This document shows positions 6,574 through 58,984 of a stretch of 64,000 nucleotides of DNA, piece after piece. The notes below the pieces were generated by a model. That model saw only the letters and a program-made list of their open reading frames with translations. It was not told where the DNA came from and made no database searches. Numbering within the stretch: the first letter of the stretch is position 1; each line of letters starts with the position of its first letter. A program made the translations under genes and the position numbers. The stretch lies in the NCBI GenBank assembly GCA_018818965.1, contig JAHJQX010000010.1, positions 4,579-68,578 of the forward strand. Direction: 5' to 3'. This stretch comes from Patescibacteria group bacterium. GTDB lineage: Bacteria; Patescibacteriota; JABMPQ01.

Positions 6574-8610
6574 ATGATAGACAATTGCCAAGAATTTGCT
6601 TCCGGTCACCGAAGTTGTCGGGGTTGCACAGCGGTGCCGCAGCCAATTCGCTATACTATTTCGGCGATGAAGGAAGAGGGGATCCCAGTTGTAATTGCTA
6701 ATGCTACGGGGTGTACTGAGGTTACCTCGACTATTTCACCTTATACCTGTTGGAATGTGCCTTATATACACAGCGTGTTTGCTAATGTTGCGGCCACCGC
6801 CTCCGGGATAGAGTCAGCCTACAAGGCGTTGGCCAAAAGTGGCAAACTTAAAGAGATAAATGGCGGTAAGGATATAAAAAAACCAGCTATTATTGCTCTC
6901 GCCGGTGATGGCGGCTCCTATGATATTGGTCTGCAAGCTCTCTCGGGAGCATTTGAGCGACGTCATGATTTTGTCTATATTTGCTACGACAACGAAGCTT
7001 ATATGAATTGCTTGTCTACGGATTCTCTGGTAATGACTGCAGCCGGATTGAAGAAAATTACTGAGGTAAAAAAAGGAGAAAAAGTATGCACTTTTGATCA
7101 GAAAGACTACAAGCTAGTTTTAAAGAAATGCACTGGCGTTTTTGATAATGGTATAAAACAAGTATATAATCTTAAAACCTTTCATCACGACATTAAGGCT
7201 ACTACCAATCATCCCTTTTTAGTATTACAGCGGGGAGGTCGGGGAGGAAAAAATAAATTTATTTGGAAAGTGCTTGGTAAAATCAAACCAGGGGACGAAG
7301 TGGTGGTATCGAAAAAAATAGACGAGGGTAAATCTTTTGATTTTCATTTTAAGAAAACAAAGGTCGGAGATTACAAAGTGTCTCATCTAAATAAAATTAT
7401 ATTACCGAAAAATTCCAGTCCGGACTTGATGAAATATCTGGGATTATATGTTGGTGATGGTTGGCTGCGAGAAAAAAAGGGAGAAGTTGGTTTTGCGTTG
7501 CCGGCTAACACTTCTGGCCGACGAGCTTTAGTTGCCTTACATCGTAAAATTTTTCAGAGTAAGGTAAAAACTGATGAACTATATGCTTATATTAATTCAG
7601 TTAATCTGGCTAAATTTATTAAGTCGCTCGGTTTTGGTCAGGGGGCAGAAAATAAGCGGGTACCGTTCTGGATTTTTACTTTGCCACAAAAAGAAAAGGA
7701 AGCTTTTTTGGAAGGACTGATGTTATCTGATGGATACAAGCATGGTAATAGCTGGCGATACGTTTCTGCTAGTGGAGGGCTATTGCAAACTCTACGTTTA
7801 TTACTGCAAACTTTTGATTATCGAGTGGGTGGTATCCATTGGCAAACTAAAAAGAAAGGCACCAAGGTGGTTTACCGCAGATTGCTTAAGGATGCTAAAT
7901 ATGGCTATATTTGCTTTAGTAAAAAGCGTAAGTGGAATTTAGAGAAATATCCCAACCAATATAAATATCAAAATTTCTTAGTTGATAATGACTATTTTAA
8001 TGTCGAAAAGGTAAAATCTGTAAAGCTAGTTGGTCGAGAACCAACATTGGATTTGAGAGTAGAGGGCGAACATAACTTTATTGCTGATGGGGTTGTAGTT
8101 CACAATACCGGCAATCAACGTTCTTCCGCTACTCCCTTTGGTAGCGCCACTTCTACCACCCCAGCGGGAAAAAAGATTGGCGGCAAACAACGCCAACGCA
8201 AAGATTTAACTAAAATAGCGGTCGCTCATAATATTCCCTACGTGGCTACTGCCGCTGTTAGCCACCGCGCTGATTTTATGACCAAAGTAAAGAAAGCCGT
8301 GGCGGTCGATGGGCCAGCATTTATTAATATCTTAGCCCCTTGCACTTTGGGCTGGAAATTTCCGGAGGATATGGGAATTACTATCGCGCGCTTGGGAGTT
8401 GAGACAAACTACTGGCCACTCTACGAGGTTGAGGACGGAGAATATAAGTTGAGTTATCAGCTAAAACAGCGCAAGCCGATCACGGAATTTGTTAAATTGC
8501 AGGGACGGTTTAAGCACTTATTTAAAGACAAGGATCAACTGGTTATAACAGAGATGCAAAAATATGTTGATGATCAATGGCGTCGGTTATTATCTTTGTG
8601 CGGTAAGTAA
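6574..8610 (+). CDS. porB: 2-oxoacid (pyruvate):ferredoxin oxidoreductase beta subunit (TPP-binding, PorB-like), interrupted by an intein
   Basis: Exteins 6574-7008 and 8107-8610 (about 312 aa together) carry the Cys cluster (CRGC...C) and the GDGG TPP motif. The YDNEAYMN|TGNQRSS junction is reconstituted by removing residues 146-511. Confidence 0.8.
   Translation: MIDNCQEFASGHRSCRGCTAVPQPIRYTISAMKEEGIPVVIANATGCTEVTSTISPYTCWNVPYIHSVFANVAATASGIESAYKALAKSGKLKEINGGKDIKKPAIIALAGDGGSYDIGLQALSGAFERRHDFVYICYDNEAYMNCLSTDSLVMTAAGLKKITEVKKGEKVCTFDQKDYKLVLKKCTGVFDNGIKQVYNLKTFHHDIKATTNHPFLVLQRGGRGGKNKFIWKVLGKIKPGDEVVVSKKIDEGKSFDFHFKKTKVGDYKVSHLNKIILPKNSSPDLMKYLGLYVGDGWLREKKGEVGFALPANTSGRRALVALHRKIFQSKVKTDELYAYINSVNLAKFIKSLGFGQGAENKRVPFWIFTLPQKEKEAFLEGLMLSDGYKHGNSWRYVSASGGLLQTLRLLLQTFDYRVGGIHWQTKKKGTKVVYRRLLKDAKYGYICFSKKRKWNLEKYPNQYKYQNFLVDNDYFNVEKVKSVKLVGREPTLDLRVEGEHNFIADGVVVHNTGNQRSSATPFGSATSTTPAGKKIGGKQRQRKDLTKIAVAHNIPYVATAAVSHRADFMTKVKKAVAVDGPAFINILAPCTLGWKFPEDMGITIARLGVETNYWPLYEVEDGEYKLSYQLKQRKPITEFVKLQGRFKHLFKDKDQLVITEMQKYVDDQWRRLLSLCGK
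7009..8106 (+). mobile_element. intein (366 aa) with a LAGLIDADG homing-endonuclease domain, inserted in the porB TPP motif
   Basis: Begins with Cys (CLSTDSLV, block A) and has TTNHPF (block B). Two LAGLIDADG motifs: LGLYVGDGW at about 7440 and LEGLMLSDG at about 7715. Ends ...VVVHN followed by Thr (+1). The insert is more AT-rich than the flanking extein. Confidence 0.85.
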
Positions 8611-22916: not shown

Positions 22917-23329
22917 ATTTTTATTTTTTTAATTAGTTTTGATGATTTATATATCTCCGGCTTATACGATCTTGCTCGTATTATTTTAATATTTTGGTTG
23001 CTTCCCTTAATATATCTTTCCAACTCACCGACAAACTTCCGCTGATCATAGCCTAAACAAATTATAGCTGGCTGGCGCTCACGGATTATTTGTAATTTAT
23101 CACCTCCCGACTGAGCAGCTATTACCTCATCAACTATTCCTTGTTTCTCAATCTCGGCCATCCGCTCAGTTTGTTTATGTATTGGATATTCGCCTTTGAT
23201 TGTCTTTACCGTCTCATCGTGAGCTACCACCACCGTTAGCTGATCACCATGCTCCTTGGCTTGGCGGAAAAAATCTAGATGACCCAGATGAAGAATATCA
23301 AAGGTGCCGAAGACCATTATTTTAATCAT
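22913..23329 (-). CDS. HxGH-motif nucleotidyltransferase (cytidylyltransferase-like; RibL/TagD-type)
   Basis: 138 aa. MVFGTFDILHLGHLDFFRQAK... carries the (T/H)xGH signature. Resembles glycerol-3-P cytidylyltransferase and the archaeal-type FAD synthetase. Confidence 0.7.
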   Translation of the reverse strand: MIKIMVFGTFDILHLGHLDFFRQAKEHGDQLTVVVAHDETVKTIKGEYPIHKQTERMAEIEKQGIVDEVIAAQSGGDKLQIIRERQPAIICLGYDQRKFVGELERYIKGSNQNIKIIRARSYKPEIYKSSKLIKKIKI

Positions 23330-25428
23330 AATCCTAACTCATCACTAATTTCCTGCATCGCCTTGAGGCTAAGTTCGATAAACTCATCTAACGATAATCC
23401 TAATTGATCACACTCTCCAATCATCTCACGCGACACTTTAGCGGCAAAAGACTTGTCTTTCATTTTTTTCTTAAGCGACTTGGCTTTGACGTTGGCTAGT
23501 TTTTTGTCTGGATGCACTAGAGCAGAAGCAAAAATCAAACCAGTGATACTCTCTGCACAAGCCACCGCATGATCGAGCTTAGTTTGCCGCTCAATCACCT
23601 TATTATATTCATAACTGTGAGCTTGGATAGCGTTGATACCAACTTCAGGAAACTTTTGCGCCCGGAGAATATCAGCTGTTACCTTACCATGCTCGGCTGG
23701 CTTATCTTGAGTCTCCTCCCAATCAAGATCGTGTAGTAAACCTGTTACTGCCCACAACTCCTCGTCCTCACCTAACTTTTTAGCCAAAGCTCGCATAATT
23801 ACTTCCGTCTCGCGGGAGTGAAGAATGTTTTTTTCGTCTTTCAAATGCTCTTTGAGTAGAGCAAACGCATCGTCGCGAGTCAGGGATAAATTAACTTTGG
23901 CCATTTTTTGAGATTTAGTTAGCAGGGTTTTATTTCTATCTGCAGTTGATGTCAGCCGGTGACCGTCGTCACCTTTGGGCTTCATGGTGGGGAACAAGAT
24001 CACTTCTTTGATCGAATTGGTATTGGTAAACAACATTGCCATACGATCAATCCCGATACCAATTCCAGTTACGGGTGGCATTCCATGCTCAATCGCTTCG
24101 ATAAATTCTTCGTCAGTCTGGTGGGCTTCGTCAAAACCAGATTGTTCTTTCTTTTTTTCCTCAACGAAACGTTGACGCAAATCAACCGGATCATTAAGCT
24201 CTGAATAATGATTGCCAGCTTCAGATCCGATAATGAAATGTTCGAAGCGCTCAACAAAACGAGGATCATCGGCGCATTTCTTGGCTAGGGGAGATGTTTC
24301 TACTGGGTAATTGTAAATGATGGTCGGCTGAATTAGTTTCTCCTCCACTTTCTCTTCAAAAATATAAGCAATCATCTCACCTGTGGTCTGGAACATGGCA
24401 AGCTCCTCTTTGTCTAGCCCCAACTTTAAGGCCTTTTCCCTGACCTGGTCACAGCTATCACCGATAGTAAAATCAGCTCCGGTATATTCTTTAATAGACT
24501 CGACCATAGTTAACCGCTTCCAAGGTCGTTCCAGATTAATCTTCTGTCCCTGATATTCAATCTCCGTTCCACCTAGCACTTCTTGAGCCGTCTGCAAATA
24601 GATCTCCTCCACCAAATCCATACTAAACTCATAGTTTTGGTAAGCCGTCATAATTTCTAGCAGAGTAAACTCAGGATTATGACTTAGATCAATGCCTTCA
24701 TTGCGAAAGTCCTTACAAAACTCAAACACTTTCTCAAAACCACCCACTATTAATCTCTTAAGATACAGCTCGTCAGAAATACGCAGATAAAGTGGAATAT
24801 CCAAGGCATTATGATGAGTCTTAAATGGCTTAGCAAAACCGCCACCATAAATCGTTTGCAAAATAGGAGTGTCGACTTCCATATACCCTTTAGTAATCAG
24901 AATCTGCCGAATTTTTTCAATCATGGCGGAACGAAGTTCAAATCTTTTTCTAACTTCCGGATTGACTGCCAAATCCAAATAACGCTTACGAAATCTTTCC
25001 TCGACATCTTTTAAACCATGCCATTTTTCTGGCAATGGCTTTAGGCTCTTAGTGAGAAGGGAATAGTCAGATACTTCGAGAGTCTTTTCGCCCTTCTTAG
25101 TAGTAAATAATTTACCAGTCAGCTGCACAAAATCTCCCATATCAAGACTTGAGAAAGATTTATACTTGTCTTCGCCAAGGATATCTCGTCGTAAATAAGC
25201 TTGGATTCGAGCAGTACCATCTTGCACCTGGACAAAAGTAGATCCCCCATGGGAGCGAATAGCATAAATCCTTCCCACTAAGGATATTTCCCGTCCCTTG
25301 AGCTTAGCAAAATCAGCCAACATTTCCTGGCAAGTGTTTGTCCTTTTGGCTTTAGCCGGATAGGGATTTAATTTTGCCTGCTTAATTTTATTGAGTTTGG
25401 CAAGACGTATTGCTGACTCTTCCGCCAT
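23326..25428 (-). CDS. lysS: lysyl-tRNA synthetase (class II) fused to a C-terminal HD-domain phosphohydrolase
   Basis: 700 aa. Residues 1 to about 500 are a complete LysRS (OB anticodon-binding domain, motifs 1-3, ...GIGIDRMAMLF...VILFPTMKP). Residues about 520-700 carry H...HD...H...D (ILHSRE...LLHDLDW...AHSYE...LDHAV), typical of HD/YqeK-like hydrolases. No stop separates the two parts. Confidence 0.9.
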   Translation of the reverse strand: MAEESAIRLAKLNKIKQAKLNPYPAKAKRTNTCQEMLADFAKLKGREISLVGRIYAIRSHGGSTFVQVQDGTARIQAYLRRDILGEDKYKSFSSLDMGDFVQLTGKLFTTKKGEKTLEVSDYSLLTKSLKPLPEKWHGLKDVEERFRKRYLDLAVNPEVRKRFELRSAMIEKIRQILITKGYMEVDTPILQTIYGGGFAKPFKTHHNALDIPLYLRISDELYLKRLIVGGFEKVFEFCKDFRNEGIDLSHNPEFTLLEIMTAYQNYEFSMDLVEEIYLQTAQEVLGGTEIEYQGQKINLERPWKRLTMVESIKEYTGADFTIGDSCDQVREKALKLGLDKEELAMFQTTGEMIAYIFEEKVEEKLIQPTIIYNYPVETSPLAKKCADDPRFVERFEHFIIGSEAGNHYSELNDPVDLRQRFVEEKKKEQSGFDEAHQTDEEFIEAIEHGMPPVTGIGIGIDRMAMLFTNTNSIKEVILFPTMKPKGDDGHRLTSTADRNKTLLTKSQKMAKVNLSLTRDDAFALLKEHLKDEKNILHSRETEVIMRALAKKLGEDEELWAVTGLLHDLDWEETQDKPAEHGKVTADILRAQKFPEVGINAIQAHSYEYNKVIERQTKLDHAVACAESITGLIFASALVHPDKKLANVKAKSLKKKMKDKSFAAKVSREMIGECDQLGLSLDEFIELSLKAMQEISDELGL

Positions 25429-29448: not shown

Positions 29449-30510
29449 CTATTTCTTTATTATCATATTATCTTCCGAAGAAACCAGGACGTCCTTCAAA
29501 CTATCAATATCCTCTAGAATAATCCCGGTCCCACGAGCGACGCAAGTCAAGGGATCATCAGCCAGAAAAACGGGGATTTTAGTCTGCTCAGTGATTAATT
29601 TATCTAGACCCCGCAATAAAACCCCTCCTCCGGCTAAAACAATTCCCTTACGCATAATATCAGCTACCAGTTCGGGAGGAGTTTCTTCAATTACCATTTT
29701 AATATTATCAACGATTGTATAAACCGATCTGGCAATAGCTTTTCTAATATCTTCATCAAGAGCCTTCACTTCTTTGGGCAAGCCAGTGACAAGGTCACGA
29801 CCCCGCATAATGGTTTGTAAAGGTTTCCTCAGCGGAGTGGCCGATCCAACCGCTATTTTGATTTCTTCAGCGGTACGTTCTCCCAGCAGCAGATTGATTT
29901 CATCACGAGCATATTGAATAATGTTTTCATTCATTTCATCACCAGCCACCCGCAATGACTTTGACACTACCACTCCTCCCAAAGAAATCACCGCAATTTC
30001 CGTGGTACCACCACCAACATCAACAATCATACTACCAGCCGCGTCTTGCACTGGTAAACGAGCTCCGATTGCAGCGGCCATCGGTTCCTCGACTAGAAAT
30101 GTGCGCCGGGCACCAGCGCTCTTGGCTGCATCTTCCACTGCCTTTTTTTCAACCTCGGTTACTCCCGAAGGAATTCCAATCACCACTCGCGGACGGGGCA
30201 ACAAAGAAAAACCACCTTTGTGTACTTTTTCGACAAAATATTTTAACATCTGTTCGGTAATCTCAAAATCAGATACCACCCCATCAACCAAAGGACGACT
30301 AGCTACGATATGAGCGGGTGTTTTCCCTACCATTTTACGAGCCTCACTACCAATCGCTAAAATCTGACCAGTACGTTTATTGATAGCAACTACTGATGGT
30401 TCATTGATAACAATCCCTTCATTGCGAACATAAACCAAGGTATTGGCGGTGCCGAGATCGATACCGATATCTTTAGAAAATGTACCTAAAATGTCACTGA
30501 TTATTGGCAT
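29449..30510 (-). CDS. mreB: rod shape-determining protein MreB (actin homolog)
   Basis: 353 aa. DIGIDLGTANTLVY phosphate-1, DVGGGTTEIAVISLGG phosphate-2 and adenosine motifs. Confidence 0.95.
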   Translation of the reverse strand: MPIISDILGTFSKDIGIDLGTANTLVYVRNEGIVINEPSVVAINKRTGQILAIGSEARKMVGKTPAHIVASRPLVDGVVSDFEITEQMLKYFVEKVHKGGFSLLPRPRVVIGIPSGVTEVEKKAVEDAAKSAGARRTFLVEEPMAAAIGARLPVQDAAGSMIVDVGGGTTEIAVISLGGVVVSKSLRVAGDEMNENIIQYARDEINLLLGERTAEEIKIAVGSATPLRKPLQTIMRGRDLVTGLPKEVKALDEDIRKAIARSVYTIVDNIKMVIEETPPELVADIMRKGIVLAGGGVLLRGLDKLITEQTKIPVFLADDPLTCVARGTGIILEDIDSLKDVLVSSEDNMIIKK

Positions 30511-37701: not shown

Positions 37702-38712
37702 TTATTTTTTTGCTGATAGAACACTGCGCTTGTATGAGTCTAAGTTCTCCAACGCAATTCCGTTACCTTTGGCTACGCAAAGCAATGGATCCTCGGCCAC
37801 ATAACACAAAACACCGATTGATTTAGTAACTAAAGTATCCAGGCCTCGTAACAAAGCTCCCCCACCAGTTAATACTATTCCTTTATCAATGACATCGGCA
37901 GATAATTCTGGTGGAGTTTCTTGCAAGACAGATTTAATCGTTTGCAGCATTTCCCGTAGTTCATTCTTAATCGATTCTGCTACCTCATTAGAACAAATTT
38001 TGATAGTTTGGGGTAAGCCAGACACCATGTCCCGACCTTTAATCTCCATACATTGCTCTTTTTTAACCGGAATAGCCGAACCGATCTTGATTTTGATTTC
38101 TTCGGCCGTTCGGTCGCCAATGGCCAAACCATGTTTTCTTCTAACGTAATCGGTTATGGCTTGATCAAGCTTGTCGCCAGCGATGCGAACAGAACTAGCA
38201 GCTACAATACCACCCAGAGAAATAACAGCGACTTCGGTAGTACCACCACCAATATCAATTACCATGTTACCACTGGATTGAGCAATCGGAATTCCCGCTC
38301 CAATTGCCGCTGCCACTGGCTCTTTGATAACATAGGCTGCTTTAGCTCCAGCTTGGATAGTGGCATCGATCACTGCTCGTCGCTCAGTGCTAGTAATCCC
38401 CGCTGGAATCGAAACCATTACTTCGGGACGAAACATGCGGATATTACCAATTGCTTTAGTAATAAAATATTTAAGCATCGCCTCTGTCACCCGATAGTCA
38501 GCTATCACTCCATCTTTGAGGGGTCGGGAAGCAACGATTGTGTCGGGTGTTTTGCCCAACATCATCTTGGCTTCATTCCCTACCGCTAGAATTGAATTGT
38601 CGTCCATCGAAACTGCCACGACTGAAGGTTCATCAATGACAATTCCCCTGCCAGGGACATATACTAGTGTATTGGCCGTACCCAAATCAATACCAACTTT
38701 CTTAACAAACAT
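37702..38712 (-). CDS. mreB: second MreB-family actin homolog (MreB/Mbl paralog)
   Basis: 336 aa. KVGIDLGTANTLVYV and DIGGGTTEVAVISLGG. Recognisably related to the 29449..30510 copy over its full length but clearly divergent. Confidence 0.9.
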   Translation of the reverse strand: MFVKKVGIDLGTANTLVYVPGRGIVIDEPSVVAVSMDDNSILAVGNEAKMMLGKTPDTIVASRPLKDGVIADYRVTEAMLKYFITKAIGNIRMFRPEVMVSIPAGITSTERRAVIDATIQAGAKAAYVIKEPVAAAIGAGIPIAQSSGNMVIDIGGGTTEVAVISLGGIVAASSVRIAGDKLDQAITDYVRRKHGLAIGDRTAEEIKIKIGSAIPVKKEQCMEIKGRDMVSGLPQTIKICSNEVAESIKNELREMLQTIKSVLQETPPELSADVIDKGIVLTGGGALLRGLDTLVTKSIGVLCYVAEDPLLCVAKGNGIALENLDSYKRSVLSAKK

Positions 38713-46342: not shown

Positions 46343-48211
46343 CTATATAGTATCAGCAATCCTCTCCTTGTCAAGCATAATTTCAATTTTTTTCTCGGTG
46401 CGCGGGATCTTTTTGACCCAGAATGGCCAAAGAGAAATTTCCACGCTAACTATGTTCGGATTGCCCAGAATATGATCACGTGCTTCCTGTTCAGTTTGAC
46501 CCCTAATATCCCTTTTCATCTTCTGCTCATCAAGACGCCAGGCTACTTCTTTACTAATCGACACCTTGATAGTAACTGCTTCTTGGCCATTAAAACCTTG
46601 TTCTACTTTCTCAAAAGCTATACCCTGTTCAATATCATCATTAATAATATATTTCTCGGTGGGAACCAATCGGTCAAATTTACTAGCTAACAACTGTGAA
46701 AAATCGTTTCGGGAAAAAGTTAAGCCGGTAGCCCGGACGCTAACTTTCATGTCAAACTCATCAGCTTCGGTATCGGCCTCAGCGCTGGCTTCAACCTCGG
46801 CGATTTCTTGCTCAAACATCCCGGACGGCAATATTTTATCACCACTTAGATCGTTGGTTAATTTTTTAGTTGCTTCGGCGGCAGCGGTAGTTACTAGTGA
46901 CTGTTTAGCCTCACTCAAATTTTCGGCTGATACTACTTTTACTTTGCGTGAAGAGCCGCCAGTAAACTGAGTTGTACTTTTGCCATAAATGTCACTTTGC
47001 TTACTCTGAGGTAGACTAGCAATAACAAAATTGGCTGGTCCAATATTGTAATCTTCCCCCGCTGTCCCCGCCTCCACTCGCACTTTTACTTGTCCTGGAA
47101 TGGCTTCACCCTCTTCTATGTGTGCTCCCGGTATTACTACTTCTTGCAAAGTAATATAAACCAAGCCATTAGTGATTAGTTGAGACGAGGTTGGTAAAAG
47201 TTGTGCCTCGGAAGAAAAACTATTATGCAAAACTACCTGCCCCCGAGCTTTATCACCAACTTCTTTTTCGCCAGTGGCCTCAAATTTCTTTTTGTCACTT
47301 TTACTTTCAGTTGTTACTAGTTCTCCCGGAATGGTTGCCTTTTCGGTATCAACGTCAGTAATATTTTGACTAATCACCATTTCAAAAGAAGTGGAAAATG
47401 GCTCTGTTTTAGGAACCAAGGATATTTCCGCTTTCGGTAAAACCAAAAAAAACACTAGCCCTAAAACTACCAAACTAATGGTAAAGAAAAGCGAGAAAGA
47501 TTTTATACTCAGGGAAGGCAGAAGAAATACTCGCCCTTTAACTGACTTTTTTGTTTTTCGACGGGAAGAAAGCGGACGCAAGTTAGACTGCTTAGCTTCA
47601 ACGGTAGTAGCTGGATTCGACGAAGGAGCTGCTGGCGGATGTTTGGGTTTGCTCTTTTTCCTGGCTGTAAATATCTTAGTCAAAACAGATAACTCGCTTT
47701 TACTTCTCTCTTTGGGAGAACGGGGCGTGTATTTTTTAGCTTTGCGTTGAAAAAGACGAGAATTATCTAGCCGAATTTCCTGGAACATATTGCTCTCCGA
47801 CTGGTCATCATCTGGTTCATTACCATCTCTAGATTGATAATCTGGGATTGAGTCTATCGGCTCTGCTTCCCCTATTTCTCCAACTTCGTCAGCTGATTCC
47901 GTTTCAGCTTCTGGCTCACTTAGATTTTCAATTTCCCCTGTCTCCCTAGCCAATTTTCCCGACAGCCTGGCTTGAGTAGTCAGACCCGCTTTTTTGGCCA
48001 GGCTCCTTCCGCCCACGTCAGTTGTTACCAAAATAACTTTCTTACCTAAAATATCAGCTTGCCGCCGCAGTAGTTTTAAATTGACAATGCTTTGCACAAT
48101 AGAAGCGCGACGCGGCACTAAAACATAAACAGTGCTACTGCTAGCACTGGCAATTTTATCAACCGCCGAAGTTATTTCTTCGTCTGTTTCTAAATAAACC
48201 TTGTCGCTCAT
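46343..48211 (-). CDS. large hypothetical bitopic membrane protein co-located with ftsA
   Basis: 622 aa. About 95-aa N-terminal cytoplasmic domain (MSDKVYLETDEEITSAVDKIAS...VILVTTDVGGRSLAKKAGL), an acidic then basic disordered linker, one TM (VFLLPSLSIKSFSLFFTISLVVLGLVFFLVLP) and an extracytoplasmic domain of about 370 aa. Starts 7 nt after the ftsA stop. Confidence 0.55.
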   Translation of the reverse strand: MSDKVYLETDEEITSAVDKIASASSSTVYVLVPRRASIVQSIVNLKLLRRQADILGKKVILVTTDVGGRSLAKKAGLTTQARLSGKLARETGEIENLSEPEAETESADEVGEIGEAEPIDSIPDYQSRDGNEPDDDQSESNMFQEIRLDNSRLFQRKAKKYTPRSPKERSKSELSVLTKIFTARKKSKPKHPPAAPSSNPATTVEAKQSNLRPLSSRRKTKKSVKGRVFLLPSLSIKSFSLFFTISLVVLGLVFFLVLPKAEISLVPKTEPFSTSFEMVISQNITDVDTEKATIPGELVTTESKSDKKKFEATGEKEVGDKARGQVVLHNSFSSEAQLLPTSSQLITNGLVYITLQEVVIPGAHIEEGEAIPGQVKVRVEAGTAGEDYNIGPANFVIASLPQSKQSDIYGKSTTQFTGGSSRKVKVVSAENLSEAKQSLVTTAAAEATKKLTNDLSGDKILPSGMFEQEIAEVEASAEADTEADEFDMKVSVRATGLTFSRNDFSQLLASKFDRLVPTEKYIINDDIEQGIAFEKVEQGFNGQEAVTIKVSISKEVAWRLDEQKMKRDIRGQTEQEARDHILGNPNIVSVEISLWPFWVKKIPRTEKKIEIMLDKERIADTI

Positions 48212-48218
48212 ATTTGTT

Positions 48219-49481
48219 TTAAGTCTGCATTATCTTTACCACCTTGCGCAAGGCACGATGCAAAATATCTTCCTCGCCCGCCAGATCAATCGCTAGGTTG
48301 GCCAAAGCCATCGGCGTAATATCCTGTTGATCAACCAGCTTACCAGTTTCATCAACAATATTAACTACCTCTCCTGGTTTAATGAAGGAAACATGGGGTG
48401 GTTTAGCAAAAGGTAAATTTTTGGTCCAAGTCTCTGAAAGTAGAGAAGATTTGATGCCTGGCAACACACTACCACCACCACAGAGAAGAATGCGTGCTGG
48501 TAAAAGATCCAAATTAGAAAATTCGCTGAGAGCCAGTTCTACTCCTGATAACCATACCTTACAATCGGCATCCAAAATATTTTTAACTTTACGTGTTCTC
48601 TGTACTGGTAGAGATCCTTTCGAGTATTCAATTTTTACCTTTTCCGCCTCCGTAAAACTTATCCCCAATTCATTGGAAACACGCTTAGTAAAAGCTCGTC
48701 CTCCTAGGGCAAACATCTTAGTGCCCTCTAGGCCTCCATTTCGTACTACGGCAATATCAGTGGTACCACCACCAACGTCCATAAAAATAGCGTTGAATTC
48801 CACCGAATCTTCCGCTCCGACTGAACGCGCCACCGTGTAAGGCTCAGCGGCAATCGAAAGCAAATCCATATCCAGTTCAGTGGCAATAGTCTGCAAAGCA
48901 CCCAGATGAACCAAGGGAGCATAGGCATTAAAAATTGAAATGGAGACATCCTTGCCCTGAAAACCAAGCGGGTTGGTAATCTTATATCCATCGATTTTAA
49001 CATCGACAATAGCTGCGTTGATCAAGCGGACGTCCATTTCATTGTGGCCTGTCTCCCACGACAACTGCTTGCGTACCTTATCAAAAGCTTTCCATTGTAC
49101 CTTGTGAATAATATTCTTTAGTTCCGACAGGTCTATTTTGGATTTGGGCTTCAGCCGCTCGTAGTGAACAGTGGTAGTGGTTCCCTTAACTAACTCACCC
49201 GCAATCCCCAAGATTACTTGATCGGGTCGAACACCAGCTTGCTCGACAGCTTCATCAAGTGCCTTCTCACTGGTGCGGACCACACCTTCAATATCAGTCA
49301 CCCCACCTGATTGCATATCACCTAGTCGTTGCTGATAACGACCCACTCCCTTGACAATTCCTTTACCTTCCTTGACGTCTATTTCAAAAACCAAAGCCTT
49401 CACGACCTCGGTGCCAACATCAAGGGCAAGAGCATAATGACCCAAGTTCTCCCGATGGATTATTTTATTAAAAATTCCCAT
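48219..49481 (-). CDS. ftsA: cell division protein FtsA (actin-like ATPase; FtsA/PilM family)
   Basis: 420 aa. LALDVGTEVVKALVFE phosphate-1, DVGGGTTDIAVV phosphate-2 and an SHS2-type insert. Confidence 0.75.
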   Translation of the reverse strand: MGIFNKIIHRENLGHYALALDVGTEVVKALVFEIDVKEGKGIVKGVGRYQQRLGDMQSGGVTDIEGVVRTSEKALDEAVEQAGVRPDQVILGIAGELVKGTTTTVHYERLKPKSKIDLSELKNIIHKVQWKAFDKVRKQLSWETGHNEMDVRLINAAIVDVKIDGYKITNPLGFQGKDVSISIFNAYAPLVHLGALQTIATELDMDLLSIAAEPYTVARSVGAEDSVEFNAIFMDVGGGTTDIAVVRNGGLEGTKMFALGGRAFTKRVSNELGISFTEAEKVKIEYSKGSLPVQRTRKVKNILDADCKVWLSGVELALSEFSNLDLLPARILLCGGGSVLPGIKSSLLSETWTKNLPFAKPPHVSFIKPGEVVNIVDETGKLVDQQDITPMALANLAIDLAGEEDILHRALRKVVKIMQT

Positions 49482-51551: not shown

Positions 51552-51767
51552 TTATCCTTCTAGTCTCATACGCGTAGCCTCTCGTGCCAATCTTTTCTCT
51601 TCGGCAAATAATTCGTCTAACTCTTCTTCTAGCAACTCTTTCCGTTTTTCCAGATCGCGAATGTCTATTCTTACTCTTCTAACTTCTTTTTCTCGCTTAC
51701 CAATGTCCTCTCGGAGATCTTCTAATTCTCCCTGAATCCTTTTACTTGGATCACTAAAGTCTGGCAT
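51552..51767 (-). CDS. small coiled-coil protein (71 aa), hypothetical
   Basis: Charged heptad-like sequence (EDLREDIGKREKEVRRVRIDIRDLEKRKELLEEELDELFAEEKRL). Sits between mnmA and alaS with 11-nt and 9-nt gaps. Confidence 0.4.
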   Translation of the reverse strand: MPDFSDPSKRIQGELEDLREDIGKREKEVRRVRIDIRDLEKRKELLEEELDELFAEEKRLAREATRMRLEG

Positions 51768-51778
51768 ATTTTAGTAGT

Positions 51779-52861
51779 TTACTTTTTTATTATTCCCCCT
51801 CCTAATAATTCATTCTGATGATAAAAAACTACCGACTGGCCCGGCATGACCGCTCGTTGAGCAGTAACAAGATCAACTCGGTATCCTTGGGGATCAGCAG
51901 TGACCTCAGCCGCCACTGGTTTTGTATTATACCTCACTACCGCCTCCGCCACCAGAGGCCAAGTTGGCTCCTGCCCACTCACCCAATTAATTGTTCTACA
52001 TTTAACAATTCGAGAATATAGTTTTTTATCCTGCGGATTATTAGTAACTACTAAATTATTATTAGGCCAATCTCGATTCACCACATAATATGGCCCCTTA
52101 CCGCCAACCCTTACTCCTTTCCTCTGGCCAACAGTATATGAATGTAGCCCGTGATGCTGGCCAATCACCTTTCCAGATATGTCGACAATTGACCCTTCTT
52201 CCGCCCCACCTAAATGCCTGTCTACAAAATCTTCGACTGTATTACCAACAAAACAGATATCCTGGCTTTCTTTGACAGCAGTTACAGGCAAATCTAGCTG
52301 GAAAGCAATTTTTCTGACTTCACTTTTTTTATATCCTCCTAGGGGAAATAATAAATACTTAAGCTGCTGCTGGGTTAAATTATAGAGAAAATATGATTGA
52401 TCTTTTTTAACATCCTTAGCCTTAAAAAGCTTATATTTACCCTTGCTCTCACCCTTTTCTACGTAGTGCCCCGTCGCCAAACAATCAAATCCCAACTCTC
52501 TGATCTTATCAAGAAGCAAACCAAATTTTATCTCACGGTTACAAACTACGCAAGGATTAGGCGTATGGTGTTGCCGATATTCAGAGAGAAAATTGTCCAC
52601 TACTTGCTCTTTAAATTCCTTTTTAAAATCCAAGGAGTAAAAAGGAATTTTCAACTTGTTCGCCACCGCTCGCACCCGCTTTTCTGCTGCACTAGAGCAA
52701 CAACGATTCTCTCGCCGACAGCCAGACTGATCCTGCCAAAAGTACATAAAAAAACCAGTCACATCACAGTCACTTTTTTGTAACAGAGCAGCGGCCACTG
52801 ATGAATCTACTCCTCCTGACATAGCTACCGCCACCCGAAGTCGACGTTTGTTTCTCATCAT
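51779..52861 (-). CDS. mnmA: tRNA-specific 2-thiouridylase MnmA
   Basis: 360 aa. PP-loop SGGVDSSV, with catalytic Cys residues in the ...CCSS... region and a downstream conserved Cys. Confidence 0.9.
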   Translation of the reverse strand: MMRNKRRLRVAVAMSGGVDSSVAAALLQKSDCDVTGFFMYFWQDQSGCRRENRCCSSAAEKRVRAVANKLKIPFYSLDFKKEFKEQVVDNFLSEYRQHHTPNPCVVCNREIKFGLLLDKIRELGFDCLATGHYVEKGESKGKYKLFKAKDVKKDQSYFLYNLTQQQLKYLLFPLGGYKKSEVRKIAFQLDLPVTAVKESQDICFVGNTVEDFVDRHLGGAEEGSIVDISGKVIGQHHGLHSYTVGQRKGVRVGGKGPYYVVNRDWPNNNLVVTNNPQDKKLYSRIVKCRTINWVSGQEPTWPLVAEAVVRYNTKPVAAEVTADPQGYRVDLVTAQRAVMPGQSVVFYHQNELLGGGIIKK

Positions 52862-54426
52862 TACGAACGCTGGTCGTTAATTTTGACTACTTGGCCAGGT
52901 TTTATTCCGGCTCCTGATTTGCGACTCGGCCGCGAGTCAACTTTAGCTGGTTCGGTAGCTTTTTTCTGGTTACTGTTCCGCCCCCCGAGAGCAGTGGCGA
53001 AAGCTTTTTTAAAAGGCTGGTGAACTTTAGTATCCGGGGATGGTTGCGACGATCTATTAGATGTGATTGATCTATCTTTTGGTCTCCGATCCCTGTCCGC
53101 TGGTGCTCTATCAATCTTTTTCTCCTCGCTCTCTTCCTCCATTACCCCACTCCAACGAGCAATTTTATCTTCAACCACGTCTCGCTTCTTAGCATAACGC
53201 TCGCGCGAGATTTCAACAATTTTATCTCTGTTCCCCTCTGTTTCCCACAAAGGTGGTAGGGTCATAGCCGAAAAAGCCTGACTAGCCACCCCTTCTATCA
53301 TTAACTTTAAATATATGCGGTACTTAGTCAGATTAACTAGGTCAGTTTCGTCGAAAATTGGCTCAAATTCTTTAACTAGAACTTCGGCATCAGCTGCCCC
53401 GATTCGAAAACAGACAATCGTACCGACATTGCCAAACACAGCGTAGCGAACTTCTTCGGCTAGTTGATCAATATACTGGTGAGCCATTATCAAATCTAAG
53501 TGATACTTACGCGCTTCGGACAAGATATCAGCAAAACTTTCCGTCGCAAAATTTTGGAACTCATCGACATAGAGATAAAAATCGGCTCGTTCTTCCTCGG
53601 GAATATCAACTCGACTCATTGCTGCCAACTGGATTTTGGTAATTACCATCGCTCCAAAGAGAGCCGAGGCATCCTCACCTACCCTTCCCTTGGCTAAATT
53701 AAGTAATAGAATCTTCCGGTTATCCATGATGTCACGCATATCCAGAGTTGACTTAGACTGACCCACAATATTTCTGATCAAGGAAATTGACAAGAACTGA
53801 CCAACTTTATTCTGGATTGGAGCAATGGCTTCAGCCATAAATCTATCAGGATACTTCGAGAATTCATCTATCCAAAAAGACTTCACTACTGGATCAGTCA
53901 CCTTCTTGACCACTTTATTGCGAAAAGTCTTGTCCGTCAGCATTTTCATAATACCCAGTAGGGTGCTGCCAGGATAATCCATCAGAGCTAGAATAGTATT
54001 ACGCAGCACATATTCCAAACGCGGACCCCAAGAATCAGCCCAGATCTTTTTAAATACACCCAGCAGTCCTGACGCCACTAAATGCTTGTGATCAGGATCA
54101 ATATTCTCCATCACATTGAAAGCAATTGGATTATTAACGTCGCCAGGATTAAAATAGACAACATCGTTAATTCGGCTGGCGGGAACATAATCTAACATCC
54201 GATCAGCAAACTCACCATGAGGATCAACCACGCAGACTCCATTGCCAGCCTTAATATCAGAAATCACCATGTTCTCCAGCATGGTCGTTTTACCCATACC
54301 CGTTTTTCCGACCACATACATGTGCCGCCGTCGGTCATCAGTTCTAATACCAAACTTTCGACTTTGACCACGGAAATTGGTCTCGCCAAACAGGGTAACG
54401 TCTGATTGGGTTTTGTGTTTTTCCAT
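52861..54426 (-). CDS. TraD/VirD4-like (type IV coupling protein family, FtsK/HerA superfamily) P-loop ATPase, soluble form with a disordered basic C-terminal tail
   Basis: 521 aa. Walker A VVGKTGMGKTT and Walker B LYVDEFQNF. A TraG-D_C-like region (...ARKYHLDLIMAHQYIDQL...). The last roughly 100 aa are low-complexity Arg/Lys/Ser/Pro. Its stop overlaps the mnmA start (TAATGATG). No TM helix of its own. Confidence 0.6.
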   Translation of the reverse strand: MEKHKTQSDVTLFGETNFRGQSRKFGIRTDDRRRHMYVVGKTGMGKTTMLENMVISDIKAGNGVCVVDPHGEFADRMLDYVPASRINDVVYFNPGDVNNPIAFNVMENIDPDHKHLVASGLLGVFKKIWADSWGPRLEYVLRNTILALMDYPGSTLLGIMKMLTDKTFRNKVVKKVTDPVVKSFWIDEFSKYPDRFMAEAIAPIQNKVGQFLSISLIRNIVGQSKSTLDMRDIMDNRKILLLNLAKGRVGEDASALFGAMVITKIQLAAMSRVDIPEEERADFYLYVDEFQNFATESFADILSEARKYHLDLIMAHQYIDQLAEEVRYAVFGNVGTIVCFRIGAADAEVLVKEFEPIFDETDLVNLTKYRIYLKLMIEGVASQAFSAMTLPPLWETEGNRDKIVEISRERYAKKRDVVEDKIARWSGVMEEESEEKKIDRAPADRDRRPKDRSITSNRSSQPSPDTKVHQPFKKAFATALGGRNSNQKKATEPAKVDSRPSRKSGAGIKPGQVVKINDQRS

Positions 54427-54438
54427 CGATAATATAGA

Positions 54439-55713
54439 TTACTCCATTGGTAAATCACTCGGTGGCATTCCCTTACCCGCCTCGGCCGTGATAACTGCCG
54501 GAGATTTAACTGTAATATAAGGAAAGTGAAAAACCGTAGCTACTTCTTCCACACTCAGGATAAAGGGTTGGGCGCCAGCATCAATATCGCGAGCCTGATA
54601 ACGACGCACTAGATTAGACTGACGGGGAGGAATCCGAGTTTTCTTCCAGTAAGAAATAAACGTCCAATGCTTATGGTGAGGCTTGAAAGAATTAAGATTT
54701 TGGGAGTTAAACCCTTTGAATGTTCCCATCATGGGAAAACCGATTCTCTTTTTATTAAAGACATCTTTACGCCCTAAATACATCGTCCTAACTTTTACTT
54801 GAAATCCCCCTTTACTAATATTCTCCTGGATAGCTTTCACTGCTTCTTGCTCACCCGGCGACAGAAAAAGCATCTCGCTCGGCGGAGCTTCGCTCTTGTG
54901 AGAGGTATTTTGTGCCGCTCCCGCTGGCTCAATTGCACTAACAGCTGTATGCACTCCCTTTAGAAACAGCGGTTCATAGGGCTTGCCTTTTTTCTTAATC
55001 AGCTTGGCTACTAATTTATCACCAGCTTCTTTCCACTTATCGCTGACTGGACGTAAAATATACTGATACCAGATTTGTTCGCCATCACCGATACGACTCA
55101 TTACTTCCAGAGTGCCAGATAAGGGATCGATAAACTTGTCTTCATTAATCTCATCCATAAAATACTTATAAGTCCTAATCGGGTAAGCGTCCTCTCTCGT
55201 CAGTTTCCACTCTACTCCTACTAGGTCATACTCATCGTTCGGATACTTATTGGGAACAAAATGGACGTAGTCTTCTACTTCGATAATCTCAGCTTCTGGG
55301 TACTGAGCATAGACATTAGCTTCAACGTGATCGCGCAAAATCACCGGAACCCGGATAATAAAACGAATGTTACCAGCGATACTGACAATTTCTAAACTGA
55401 AAGTTTCCTGTGATTCTCCTTCTATAAATATCTCTTTAAAATTAGGTGGGGAATAAATAGTCCACAAGCCATTTAACACTTCTTCCATCGACTTGGGGTT
55501 CTTCTCGTTATCTTCGGGAACACTGATTGCCAACAAAATATACTCAATTGATTTTACATACTTGATTCTTTTAAAACTAAGCCAAATATAATAGACGGCT
55601 ACTATTGTCCCCGCGATGGCTAGCCACCATACTTTTTGGGCCACTATAAAAAACATGTACCAGAATTCGTACAAGAAATCAAAGAAATCAAGTGGCGGCA
55701 AATCGTTTAGCAC
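54439..55713 (-). CDS. hypothetical membrane protein (N-terminal TM hairpin plus a soluble domain of about 350 aa), partner of the TraD-like ATPase
   Basis: 424 aa. Two TM helices in residues 10-50 (FLYEFWYMFFIVAQKVWWLAIAGTIVAVYYIWL). No family recognised. Lies 12 nt upstream of the ATPase. Confidence 0.5.
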   Translation of the reverse strand: MLNDLPPLDFFDFLYEFWYMFFIVAQKVWWLAIAGTIVAVYYIWLSFKRIKYVKSIEYILLAISVPEDNEKNPKSMEEVLNGLWTIYSPPNFKEIFIEGESQETFSLEIVSIAGNIRFIIRVPVILRDHVEANVYAQYPEAEIIEVEDYVHFVPNKYPNDEYDLVGVEWKLTREDAYPIRTYKYFMDEINEDKFIDPLSGTLEVMSRIGDGEQIWYQYILRPVSDKWKEAGDKLVAKLIKKKGKPYEPLFLKGVHTAVSAIEPAGAAQNTSHKSEAPPSEMLFLSPGEQEAVKAIQENISKGGFQVKVRTMYLGRKDVFNKKRIGFPMMGTFKGFNSQNLNSFKPHHKHWTFISYWKKTRIPPRQSNLVRRYQARDIDAGAQPFILSVEEVATVFHFPYITVKSPAVITAEAGKGMPPSDLPME

Positions 55714-55782
55714 AGATATTCTTTTTACTAGGCTTTTATTTTTGTATTATATAATATCTGCTAGCCTGGGGAAATAGATAAA

Positions 55783-56871
55783 TTAGGCTAGAGTGTAAGA
55801 TTTCTGTCCAACTTTTTTGAAACGATCAGTATTTTGTAAAGCCAAGGCAACTGTGTTGCGCTTAACAATTCTTTGCTTTAATACTTTGGCGATAATATCT
55901 TCTTTAGGCAGTGGTTGACCAGCTGCTTTGAGAACACTGACTACTACATCCGCTACTGTACCCGAGCTGTATCCCCATTCAGTCAAACCATAAATACCTC
56001 GCCCCACTAGGACAAAACGTTTGTCTTTAATAAGCTCGTTGTGCACTGTTTGGGGAATAGCCTGACGACCGCCAAAATTAGTATTGTTGATTTTGCTAGT
56101 AATTTCCTTAAAGTGAAGAGGTTTATTGCTTTTCTTTAAAACTAAGTAAGCCTTATCTTTAACTCCCTTGGGCACGATCTCATTCCAAGTAACAAACCCC
56201 CATTCAGCGAAGGGGTTTTTGCGCATCTTTTTGCTTAGATTTAGATAAGATTGAATATGTTTAGATTCCGAAATATCACACTTTTCAGCTACCTCGTGCT
56301 GTAAAAGTTGCTCTACAATTCCGAACTCTTTTAGTGGCTTATTATGCTTTTTTAGCACCTCGTGGGCAGCTTCAATCACTTGCTTGGGAATATCAAGCGA
56401 ACCATTTTTTACTGCCCAAGCCTTATAAGTATGCTCGGAATCAGCTAAGTGCTCAAATTTATTGCTCAGATTTAATATAAAATCAACCACGTTAGCATGA
56501 GTTTCAACTGGTGATACAGCCTCGATAAAGGAATCAATCGCGTGGTTATGCTCCATTACCTGACCATGCTTGTCGATAATAGACTCCAGCAAAACTTCGC
56601 ACGGCTTGATTGCTTTAATTTTATTACCTTTCTGTAGATCTTTAAGGGCAGCTGATTCAATCTGACGAACTCGCTCCCTGGTAATTTCGTGGTTGCGGCC
56701 AATCTCTTCTAGTGTTTGGTGACGACTGCCGTCTAAACCAAAACGTTTGACTAAAATATCTTTAGTCCTCGGTTTGAGGCTAGAGATAAGCTGCAGAACA
56801 AAATCTGTTGGCAGCACTTGCAGCCCAGTCACGTTGTTACTAGTAATATTTTTTAGGTTGTTGCTTGTCAT
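55783..56871 (-). CDS. DNA-binding protein with sigma-70 region 4 and two HARE-HTH (RNAP delta/RpoE-like winged helix) domains
   Basis: Residues about 25-80, ...DILVKRFGLDGSRHQTLEEIGRNHEITRERVRQIESAALKDL, match the sigma70 r4.2 consensus. The C-terminal ...HFKEITSKIN...RFVLVGRGIYGLTEWGY and an internal ...NPFAEWGFVTWNEI... resemble HARE-HTH (cf. B. subtilis RpoE DGRFLALSDQTWGLRSWY). Confidence 0.6.
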   Translation of the reverse strand: MTSNNLKNITSNNVTGLQVLPTDFVLQLISSLKPRTKDILVKRFGLDGSRHQTLEEIGRNHEITRERVRQIESAALKDLQKGNKIKAIKPCEVLLESIIDKHGQVMEHNHAIDSFIEAVSPVETHANVVDFILNLSNKFEHLADSEHTYKAWAVKNGSLDIPKQVIEAAHEVLKKHNKPLKEFGIVEQLLQHEVAEKCDISESKHIQSYLNLSKKMRKNPFAEWGFVTWNEIVPKGVKDKAYLVLKKSNKPLHFKEITSKINNTNFGGRQAIPQTVHNELIKDKRFVLVGRGIYGLTEWGYSSGTVADVVVSVLKAAGQPLPKEDIIAKVLKQRIVKRNTVALALQNTDRFKKVGQKSYTLA

Positions 56872-57073: not shown

Positions 57074-57105
57074 AAACTCCCTCAATGACTGAGGGAGTTT
57101 TTTTA
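57074..57105. terminator. bidirectional intrinsic terminator (after wbaP-like gene)
   Basis: Perfect 11-bp stem AAACTCCCTCA (57074-57084) pairs with TGAGGGAGTTT (57090-57100). An A-run lies 5' and T7 3' (57098-57105). Confidence 0.6.
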
Positions 57106-58511: not shown

Positions 58512-58553
58512 TTAAAGAAGGGGTTAACCTGCTCTGAATTATATACCAAAAAG

Positions 58554-58984
58554 CTCAAGCAAACAATAAGCCGAATTTAGTACCTCGTACCATTTCGGAT
58601 TTGAGTGATACGGGGCGATGATCATCTATCTGGTCCCATCATTGCTAATGGGATCAAGCGACCTACATTTTGGTCTTGCACCAGGCAGGGTTTACCAGAT
58701 TCCCATGTCACCATGAGATCAAATGGGTAGCTATCATGCTAACATCCCATTTCTTTTCACCTTTGCTCCCATCTGCCTGCCGGTAGGCAGGATCAGATCG
58801 GGACTAGTATTGTCTCTGCGGCACTTTCCCTAAGATTCAAGCCAGCTAAAAGTCTGCAGGACTCCTAACTATCTTTCTCCCGGTCGCCGTTAGCGACTGC
58901 CTTGCTGTCCCGATGGTCATCGGGACGGTGTTCGGACTTTCCTCCCCGATGAATATCGAGGCGATCATCTTGTTTACTTGAGCC
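58554..58984 (-). ncRNA. rnpB: RNase P RNA, bacterial type A
   Basis: ORF-free GC-rich block. The minus strand reads GCUCAAGUAAAC...GGGGAGGAAAGUCCGAAC (P4 5' strand)...AAGGUGAAAAG...GGUAAACCCUGCCUGGUGCAAGACCAAAAUGUAGG...ACUAAAUUCGGCUUAUU (P4 3' strand) GUUUGCUUGAGC. The two ends pair to form P1. Confidence 0.85.

Follow-up and report, generated by a model that had tools for sequence, protein, structure and literature searches.

Three consecutive minus-strand genes upstream of mnmA, in a 64,000-nt stretch of a Patescibacteria group bacterium metagenome-assembled genome (MAG; this stretch is the window, and its positions are used for all gene coordinates), encode a DNA-binding protein named SigHARE, a membrane protein of the DUF8128 family, and a soluble ATPase of the type IV coupling protein (T4CP) type. 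The 424-aa and 521-aa products of the second and third genes probably work as a single machine, which would belong to a monoderm-type T4CP class but be split in two and domesticated on the chromosome, and which would be tethered to the membrane and move nucleic acid or nucleoprotein. The native architecture of this class consists of a transmembrane (TM) helix, the DUF8128 domain, a VirD4/TrwB-like P-loop ATPase with an all-alpha insertion, and a basic disordered tail that usually carries a treble-clef Zn finger. By sequence comparison, the window pair descends from conjugative T4CPs and represents an orphan, chromosomal, split form of them. The SigHARE-DUF8128-ATPase trio is conserved across the phylum and has no known role. 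The open reading frame (ORF) coordinates of an initial annotation of this DNA were exact, as was its 12-nt gap between the DUF8128 and ATPase genes, and the gap of about 70 nt between SigHARE and DUF8128 was measured as 69 nt. The window proteins are 100% identical to MBU1177753 (SigHARE), MBU1177752 (DUF8128) and MBU1177751 (ATPase). Because homologues of all three number from hundreds to thousands, with E-values down to 0, the three ORFs are considered real genes.

In Pfam, the ATPase matches TrwB_AAD_bind (45.2 bits, cut-off 20.5), T4SS-DNA_transf (23.3 bits, cut-off 20.1), DUF87 and, marginally, TraG-D_C (22.7 bits versus a cut-off of 22), whereas FtsK_SpoIIIE (15 bits) and HerA_C (12 bits) both fall under the Pfam cut-offs and AAA_10 gives no match. 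What was found is a coupling-protein-like enzyme, not a HerA- or FtsK-type protein devoid of coupling features. The NCBIfam matches are partial and far below the equivalog cut-offs (SXT_TraD, a CD1115 VirD4-like family, CedD and others), and the VirB4 model TIGR00929 reaches 14 bits (E 0.0083) versus a cut-off of 643. With a profile of 24 homologues, the only PDB sequence matches are TrwB and DotL. The families closest to the ATPase (TrwB, DndH/DptH, HerA and FtsK) either act as DNA motors or have ATPase activity that depends on DNA. A VirD4/TrwB-type nucleotide-binding domain is present with both Walker motifs, which are invariant in the homologue alignment, and the hallmark of T4CPs, an all-alpha domain inserted in the nucleotide-binding domain, is also present. 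In agreement with the initial annotation, which had listed the Walker motifs, a TraG-D_C-like region, a missing TM anchor and a TraD-like disordered basic tail, no hydrophobic segment is found in the 521-aa protein and its last 95 aa contain 22 K+R versus 13 D+E. The ATPase is without a TM anchor of its own, and the anchor is given in trans by the DUF8128 protein.

The F TraD protein has a long disordered C-terminal tail that ends in a short conserved motif, and the tail of the window ATPase is likened to it. In the latter, the sequence HQPFKK is a degenerate relic of the treble-clef Zn finger and the terminus carries the motif PGQVVK, looser forms of which recur across the ATPase family. A comparison of PGxVVK-type C-terminal motifs with SigHARE adjacency was uninformative, related motifs being found in all context types. 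The zf_Tbcl_2 treble-clef Zn finger is present in the basic tail of 74 of 103 type-A and 10 of 10 type-B homologues. In a HIT/Nudix-linked lineage (loci L055, L071 and L080), two copies of zf_Tbcl_2 are encoded by a separate gene of ~110 aa downstream of the ATPase, so that the protein has been divided a second time there; locus L066 has a short ORF of a similar kind. By sequence identity, the ATPase family is more conserved than the neighbouring aminoacyl-tRNA synthetase. Identity is 60-76% among 24 diverse homologues from the Candidate Phyla Radiation (CPR) and averages 65% over 433 columns in 137 loci across CPR lineages; at the same loci, AlaRS and MnmA are 37-67% and 37-48% identical, respectively, to the window proteins.

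Every homologue of the 424-aa protein is labelled PF26449 (DUF8128) in the protein database; the local copy of Pfam gave no match for it. The initial annotation had proposed a membrane partner with a two-TM hairpin. The membrane protein stands, but a clear two-TM hairpin is not seen: a single hydrophobic stretch is present, and the model is read as a lone TM helix, with a very tight hairpin as the most that it would allow. Because this helix is followed by the positive-inside sequence KRIKYVK, the DUF8128 domain, of ~350 aa, is predicted to be cytoplasmic, and its predicted alpha/beta fold is like that of the VirB4 N-terminal domain. In structure comparison, one TrwK chain is matched by both models, with the ATPase model covering 303 residues different from those matched by DUF8128, and no other P-loop ATPase was found among the fold matches of the DUF8128 model. 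On these two grounds, the fold match is assigned to the N-terminal domain of VirB4. At the level of predicted models, both the N-domain and C-domain folds of VirB4 are matched by the DUF8128/ATPase pair, and DUF8128 is best described as a putative VirB4-N-domain-like module of the coupling-protein class. The hhalign comparisons of the DUF8128 and ATPase families with single A. tumefaciens VirB4 and TraG sequences were uninformative (0.2-11% probability).

The conserved order of the two genes argues that they belong together. DUF8128 lies directly upstream of the ATPase in 60 of the 77 loci with room in an ATPase-profile search of 80 species-representative genomes. In a DUF8128-profile search of 80 metagenome loci, the ATPase lies directly downstream of DUF8128 in 62 of the 71 with room, and the median gap between the two genes is ~20 nt. 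Natural fusions are also abundant. Among the best 150 cluster representatives drawn from 1.84 billion proteins (ATPase 46-71% identical), 57 scored as clear DUF8128-ATPase fusions, ~8 more contain both domains, and 80 are solo ATPases; ~40% of the closest homologue clusters are thus natural fusions with the anchor in cis. One 972-aa protein (P0391) matches both DUF8128 and TrwB_AAD_bind in Pfam, and at locus L077 a fused TM-DUF8128-ATPase paralogue lies 6 kb from a split pair. The 824 positions of PHROG family phrog_5156 are collinear with both window proteins (ATPase at 406-819, E 3.5e-60; DUF8128 at 49-223, E 4.8e-11), and in the 825-aa gp156 of Bacillus phage G, hhalign matches residues 6-323 with the DUF8128 family (97.9%) and residues 378-782 with the ATPase family (99.9%). 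The proteins are cleanly divided: where the fused forms have their linker, the split pair has the conserved DUF8128 C-terminus (EELAT..HFP...VKAP..EAKKGxPPxxLP) and the N-terminal hairpin of the ATPase. Since adjacency is conserved and natural fusions are many, the DUF8128 protein is interpreted as the detached N-terminal part of the ATPase, and the two proteins appear to be one functional unit. The idea of a split coupling protein in the initial annotation was therefore largely right, although the detached part is the whole DUF8128 domain and more than an anchor.

Most of the genome loci that lack DUF8128 belong to one of two tight clades, each with 84% internal identity and each nested inside the main diversity. 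In the first, the gene order is nrdR-nrdD-nrdG-small ORF-ATPase-DnaQ-like exonuclease; in the second, it is HIT-(Nudix)-ATPase-Zn-finger ORF, usually followed by mnmA. Deep paralogy was rejected for these loci, and because the clades are nested in the main diversity they are regarded as lineage-specific rearrangements of the same orthologue. In the nrdDG-linked loci (L019, L033, L034, L048-L051, L057, L061, L068 and L070), an ORF of 90-143 aa that has no Pfam match replaces DUF8128 directly upstream of the ATPase where called. A DnaQ-like exonuclease (RNase_T) is downstream of the ATPase in most of these loci, and a membrane protein of ~530 aa with a weak Glyco_trans_2_3 match follows in all complete ones. 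True ATPase paralogues also exist (L077, L093, P0483 and P0500), and in Southlakia epibionticum the ATPase SEML1_0293 has the paralogue SEML1_0142. Many CPR genomes carry further, more divergent ones (L077 11200-12610; L093 11000-12442; L171; L172), some of which are fused to DUF8128 in other contexts, and one 990-aa paralogue has a different N-terminal region and sits after a ResIII/Helicase_C helicase. These paralogues fit the ~2 T4CP homologues per CPR genome reported in a CPR survey (PMC12102498).

Outside CPR, 301 plasmids carry relatives of the ATPase, and the main sources of these plasmids are Streptomyces, Bacillus, Staphylococcus, Clostridium and haloarchaea. The Embleya sp. plasmid NZ_CP108778 encodes an 812-aa homologue with a TM segment at aa 34-56, a DUF8128-like region and the ATPase, within the cluster PrgI - XF1762 - VirB4-like ATPase (AAA_10/TraC_F_IV) - 812-aa protein - Replic_Relax - NlpC/P60. 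The Peribacillus plasmid NZ_CP068052 encodes an 870-aa homologue (DUF8128 hidden Markov model (HMM) E 3.5e-20), and downstream of it come Replic_Relax, a conjugal transfer protein and TcpE. Phage G (L164, NC_023719, 89194-93336) carries the VirB4-like gp155 (P-loop_TraG/AAA_10) in tandem with the fused gp156, and conjugation clusters of Actinobacteria show the pair in this order too. Bacillus phage 055SW001 and Geobacillus phage TP-84 have related fused genes as part of their early/recombination modules; a Microcystis phage homologue has no DUF8128 part, and a search of viral contigs yielded just 3 relatives, with no clear fusion. Since the gene position taken by the relatives on the plasmids and in phage G is that of a T4CP, TM-DUF8128-ATPase is the coupling-protein architecture of a class found in conjugative clusters of Actinobacteria and Firmicutes (monoderms). 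The window shows the collinear order of this class, DUF8128 before ATPase, in the state of adjacent genes. The Embleya, Peribacillus and phage G proteins share with the window pair the domain order and the motif ELA..H(F/L)P...AP...PPxxLP at the junction of the N-domain and ATPase, and the Embleya protein also shares an N-terminal TM helix followed by a basic stretch. In contrast to the window version, which is split, lacks such partners and is paired with SigHARE, these relatives are single polypeptides on mobile elements. Embleya and phage G encode a VirB4-like ATPase upstream of them, both plasmids encode a Replic_Relax relaxase downstream, and the identity in the ATPase part is only 27-33%. 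Compared with VirD4, TrwB and TraD, the window system shares membrane anchoring. It differs in that the anchor sits on a separate polypeptide with an extra cytoplasmic domain, in having one TM helix rather than two, in its basic tail with a degenerate Zn finger, and in being chromosomal, core and in a housekeeping operon with no relaxase or type IV secretion system (T4SS) genes nearby.

VirB4 itself associates with the membrane via a small TM partner or a fusion (VirB3). The DUF8128/ATPase pair resembles VirB4 (TrwK of R388) in this respect and, in the predicted model, in the N-domain fold, and several pilus types are made by CPR cells according to the literature. The pair might thus be a split assembly ATPase of the VirB3/VirB4 type that energises the biogenesis of a pilus or secretion machine, for example by extracting pilin from the membrane. 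This explanation is improbable. The profiles favour T4CP families (TrwB_AAD_bind, T4SS-DNA_transf, SXT_TraD and the CD1115 VirD4-like family), and the window pair gives no CagE_TrbE_VirB or AAA_10 match. A separate AAA_10/TraG-P-loop (VirB4-like) ATPase is encoded directly upstream in the plasmid and phage G relatives, with a relaxase downstream on the plasmids, which places the DUF8128 protein in the T4CP slot. A bona fide VirB4 is also encoded separately in CPR genomes, in the T4SS cluster (PMC12102498).

As the initial annotation had proposed, SigHARE combines sigma70 region 4 with more than one HARE-HTH (helix-turn-helix) module: beside the Pfam matches, hhalign of family sub-alignments resolves four related winged-helix repeats (aa 93-160, 161-234, 235-302 and 303-362; 86-95% probability), and more than 7000 homologues have the same architecture. 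NCBIfam gives matches to the RpoD C-terminus and to RNA polymerase delta; those to sigma families cover the last ~60 model residues only and are far under the cut-offs. Because sigma regions 1-3 were not found in SigHARE, which has region 4 only, it is considered no initiation sigma factor. Its sigma region 4.2 HTH (LTRERVRQIE) is canonical, and its winged helices are like the N-domain of the RNA polymerase delta subunit (RpoE of Firmicutes). It differs from delta in its four tandem winged helices, in the lack of an acidic C-terminal tail, in a score just below the cut-off (TIGR04567, 41.5 versus 42 bits), in being CPR-specific, and in that its apparent orthologue in Southlakia epibionticum is listed as essential (PMC10633639). 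A literature search on the HARE-HTH/sigma combination returned nothing relevant.

Among loci with room, the gene next upstream of DUF8128 is SigHARE in 50 of 55 and in 51 of 67, so that the co-occurrence of the three genes asked about in the initial annotation extends to related genomes. It is tentatively possible that the three genes are merely syntenic, with SigHARE acting as an independent essential transcription factor, a delta-like subunit of CPR RNA polymerase, and the adjacency being inherited gene order. SigHARE has promoter-like sites of its own and the 69-nt gap before DUF8128; it resembles both delta and sigma region 4, and mnmA, alaS and an ftsA-like gene are also syntenic with no obvious functional link. 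In the S. epibionticum transposon insertion sequencing (Tn-seq) study (PMC10633639), the 349-aa SEML1_0294 has Sigma70_r4 and HARE-HTH matches (ECOD: tri-helical plus three winged domains) and lies 155 nt upstream of SEML1_0293, a 921-aa protein with TrwB_AAD_bind at residues 402-719 that therefore represents the fused form. Table S1 of this study lists SEML1_0294 as essential at all time points and SEML1_0293 as non-essential (normalised reads 5817 -> 2940 -> 1372), and this difference speaks against the dedicated transcription factor of the initial annotation. Against simple inheritance of gene order, the adjacency is kept among proteins only 31-45% identical and in both split and fused forms, including locus L170, where SigHARE overlaps the fused gene by 4 nt. 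It is also kept in loci L140 and L160, where SigHARE is upstream of DUF8128 though the ATPase is not adjacent, and the SigHARE linkage is stronger than that of mnmA or alaS. Taken together, SigHARE is probably a CPR-specific DNA- and/or RNA polymerase-binding factor with an essential role of its own beyond the ATPase.

Orphan T4CP homologues in CPR are already on record. According to PMC12102498, VirD4-type homologues occur in 2,918 of 3,035 CPR genomes, and the CPR T4SS is derived from monoderm conjugation machinery, which fits the TM-DUF8128-ATPase class. These homologues and SEML1_0293 almost certainly belong to the same gene family as the window ATPase. Both sources treat the family as a single T4CP gene of unknown role, whereas the window form is split, and in their accessible parts no mention was found of a DUF8128 partner or N-domain, of the alternation of split and fused forms, of the VirB4-N-domain fold or of the SigHARE linkage. 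A literature search on PF26449 found nothing. The split architecture, the DUF8128 identity, the fusion and fission pattern and the three-gene module with SigHARE appear undescribed in the searchable literature.

Several observations weigh against the reading of the pair as a split T4CP. The T4SS, relaxase and competence genes were searched for and none lies within the 64-kb window, and only 148 of 5,713 CPR T4CP homologues are near virB4 (PMC12102498); a classical coupling role is therefore without context support. In S. epibionticum, the T4SS is listed as essential while the fused ATPase is non-essential, which argues against an obligatory T4SS partnership; the orthology of SEML1_0293 and SEML1_0294 to the window genes is deduced from annotation, domain coordinates and synteny (PMC10633639). 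One TM helix per subunit provides little for a DNA-conducting pore. The predicted ATPase model is only moderately confident (pLDDT 70), and the relation of DUF8128 to the VirB4 N-domain depends on a predicted model, with no sequence-level similarity to VirB4 or any PDB chain at E <= 10. The similarity of DUF8128 to the actinobacterial T4CP N-region is weak (hhalign 20.8%; HMM E 1e-5 in a 7-sequence search), but this alignment is nevertheless collinear, C-terminal motif included.

These observations bear on a further explanation, in which the ATPase is a T4SS-independent, exapted housekeeping DNA motor, tethered to the membrane, that might take in host DNA behind ComEC so that these nucleotide auxotrophs can scavenge nucleotides, or might handle the chromosome in an FtsK-like manner with SigHARE as a sequence-reading loader. 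The ATPase family is found in ~96% of CPR genomes versus 80% for VirB4, it is almost never near virB4, relaxases occur in only 103 CPR genomes, and a possible exaptation was raised by the authors themselves (PMC12102498). The genes lie in a housekeeping operon, with the conserved block secD-secF-SigHARE-DUF8128-ATPase-mnmA-x-alaS-ftsA-like recurring on a 1.2-Mb contig. Conservation is unusually high for a secretion component, and the rearranged lineages place the ATPase by nrdR-nrdD-nrdG with a DnaQ-like exonuclease, or by HIT/Nudix genes. The falling read counts of a non-essential SEML1_0293 beside an essential T4SS point in the same direction. This explanation is nonetheless rather unlikely: there is no direct evidence for any specific role, competence genes are not consistently adjacent, and MAG incompleteness may explain part of the gap between 96% and 80%. 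FtsK is annotated in Saccharibacterium TM7x, which makes a replacement of FtsK unlikely, and this variant was set aside. Three points nevertheless lean toward independence from a T4SS, namely the mismatch in essentiality, the difference in prevalence and the lack of virB4 or relaxase linkage (PMC10633639 and PMC12102498).

For the split, domesticated T4CP, the following mechanism is proposed. The DUF8128 subunit would insert via its N-terminal helix, with its domain in the cytoplasm, and the soluble ATPase would dock on it. The contact that the N-domain and ATPase make within the fused relatives would thereby be restored, with the conserved DUF8128 C-terminus at the place of their covalent linker. 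The ATPase may oligomerise, as a hexamer by analogy to TrwB, and would use ATP to capture and translocate its substrate, nucleic acid or nucleoprotein, on the inner side of the membrane, with the all-alpha domain and the basic or Zn-finger tail as substrate- or partner-binding elements. SigHARE, co-transcribed, may also provide a DNA-recognition or adaptor function, as relaxosome accessory proteins do for plasmid T4CPs. DNA would be the favoured substrate on circumstantial grounds, because of the nearest families, the basic tail, the DNA-binding partner, the nucleotide- and DNA-metabolism neighbours and the phage homologues, which are situated among recombination and replication genes. A link to the CPR T4SS or to DNA uptake, and a contact between SigHARE and the ATPase, may likewise be envisaged.

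Anti-phage defence with a HerA/DptH/Mad8-like ATPase, or a decayed integrative conjugative element or prophage, is very improbable. The ATPase has a PADLOC mad8 match (E 2.4e-16) and HerA matches, it has homologues in Bacillus phages and plasmids, and the sigma-r4 part of SigHARE resembles MzaA. Set against this, nearly all CPR genomes have the family and its conservation among them is very strong (PMC12102498), both gene families are flagged 'core family' and 'Patescibacteria enriched' in the Tn-seq table (PMC10633639), GC content is even across the 64-kb window, and no integrase, tRNA boundary, relaxase or partner defence genes were found within it. Composition, genomic context and distribution thus led to the rejection of both a mobile element and a defence system. 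Consistent with the initial annotation, which had seen a housekeeping unit and no obvious mobile element, the rest of the window encodes ribosomal proteins, rpoA, alaS, serS, proS, a lysS-type gene, mreB/C, PBP2, murA, frr, glnA, RNase P RNA and radC. On this composition, context and distribution, the locus is housekeeping and no mobile element.

At the 5' side, the strong terminator hairpin closes an upstream sugar transferase gene and forms the boundary of the unit (Table 1). The two promoters placed ahead of the first gene in the initial annotation exist as consensus matches only, and the region total of 12 such matches shows no excess over the shuffled expectation of 12.1. At the 3' side, the proposed translational coupling to mnmA holds in so far as the ATPase stop and the mnmA start have one base in common (TAATG). 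Tight coupling is a matter of lineage-level synteny only: mnmA is 0.04-5 kb downstream in a minority of related loci, at varying distance, and it is regarded as a syntenic neighbour rather than a functional part of the unit.

Table 1. Features of the SigHARE-DUF8128-ATPase locus and its flanks.
Feature	Protein position (aa)	Window position (nt)	Strand	Description
SigHARE gene		55783..56871	-	362 aa; sigma70 region 4 HTH and four HARE-HTH-like winged-helix repeats
Sigma70_r4	SigHARE 29-81	56629-56787	-	Pfam 51.5 bits
HARE-HTH canonical repeat	SigHARE 237-299	55975-56163	-	Pfam 57.4 bits
DUF8128 (PF26449) membrane subunit gene		54439..55713	-	424 aa, GTG start
N-terminal hydrophobic helix	DUF8128 protein ~19-47	55573-55659	-	modelled as single long helix
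Soluble T4CP-type ATPase gene		52861..54426	-	521 aa
Walker A, GKTGMGKT	ATPase 40-47	54286-54309	-	
All-alpha insertion in nucleotide-binding domain	ATPase ~111-235		-	
Walker B, YLYVDEF	ATPase 284-290	53557-53577	-	
Disordered basic tail	ATPase ~417-521	52864-53178	-	pLDDT < 50
mnmA (tRNA 2-thiouridine synthase)		51779..52861	-	NCBIfam MnmA 412 bits
Bidirectional intrinsic terminator hairpin		57074..57100	.	12-bp stem, 5 GC pairs, T-run on both strands
Sigma70-like promoter match TTGACG-16-TATTAT		57018-56991	-	TG-extended -10; consensus scan, 10/12
Sigma70-like promoter match TTGACA-17-TACACT		56958-56930	-	TG-extended -10; consensus scan, 10/12

Other features were observed in the window. 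Between mnmA and alaS, a highly charged coiled-coil ORF of 71 aa (51552-51767, minus strand) is found, and at locus L169 a longer, unannotated ORF of 346 aa takes its position. A 678-aa ORF at 6574-8610 (plus strand) with a thiamine-pyrophosphate-enzyme C-terminal domain is split by an intein (Intein_splicing aa 157-511) that contains a LAGLIDADG homing-endonuclease domain. In the 700-aa product of 23326-25428 (minus strand), a class II aminoacyl-tRNA synthetase (Lys/Asp/Asn type; OB anticodon domain) has an HD phosphohydrolase domain fused to its C-terminal end. Two full-length MreB paralogues (29449-30510 and 37702-38712, minus strand; 461.7 and 460.9 bits) are accompanied by MreC and a PBP2-type transpeptidase, in a lineage of ultra-small cells. 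A divergent FtsA/PilM-like actin-fold protein (48219-49481) adjoins a 622-aa ORF (46343-48211) that has no family match. The RNase P RNA (58552-58980, minus strand; bacterial class A, 165 bits) is 429 nt long versus a model of 367 positions and therefore contains insertions. Over positions 1-64000, the cumulative GC skew rises until ~14 kb and then falls steadily to ~60 kb, and it follows the change of coding strand from plus to minus.

Much of bacterial diversity is patescibacterial, and these bacteria are host-dependent for nucleotides, lipids and amino acids; this ATPase family bears on the question of which machines in the envelope carry macromolecules from one partner to the other. The conclusions reached here, namely a machine of two subunits or fused, its descent from monoderm conjugative systems and its essential SigHARE companion, make the function directly testable in the genetically tractable Southlakia/Actinomyces system. 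As a VirB4-N-domain-like module, DUF8128 bears on the divergence of VirB4 and VirD4. A more speculative and unlikely view is that the near-universal CPR 'T4CP' is no secretion component but a membrane-tethered DNA pump, with DUF8128 as the anchor of the soluble ATPase and SigHARE loading or orienting it, that would bring in host DNA as a source of nucleotides or connect the membrane with the nucleoid or RNA polymerase. If true, the DNA pump would represent a new cellular use of the coupling-protein motor in ultra-small epibionts.

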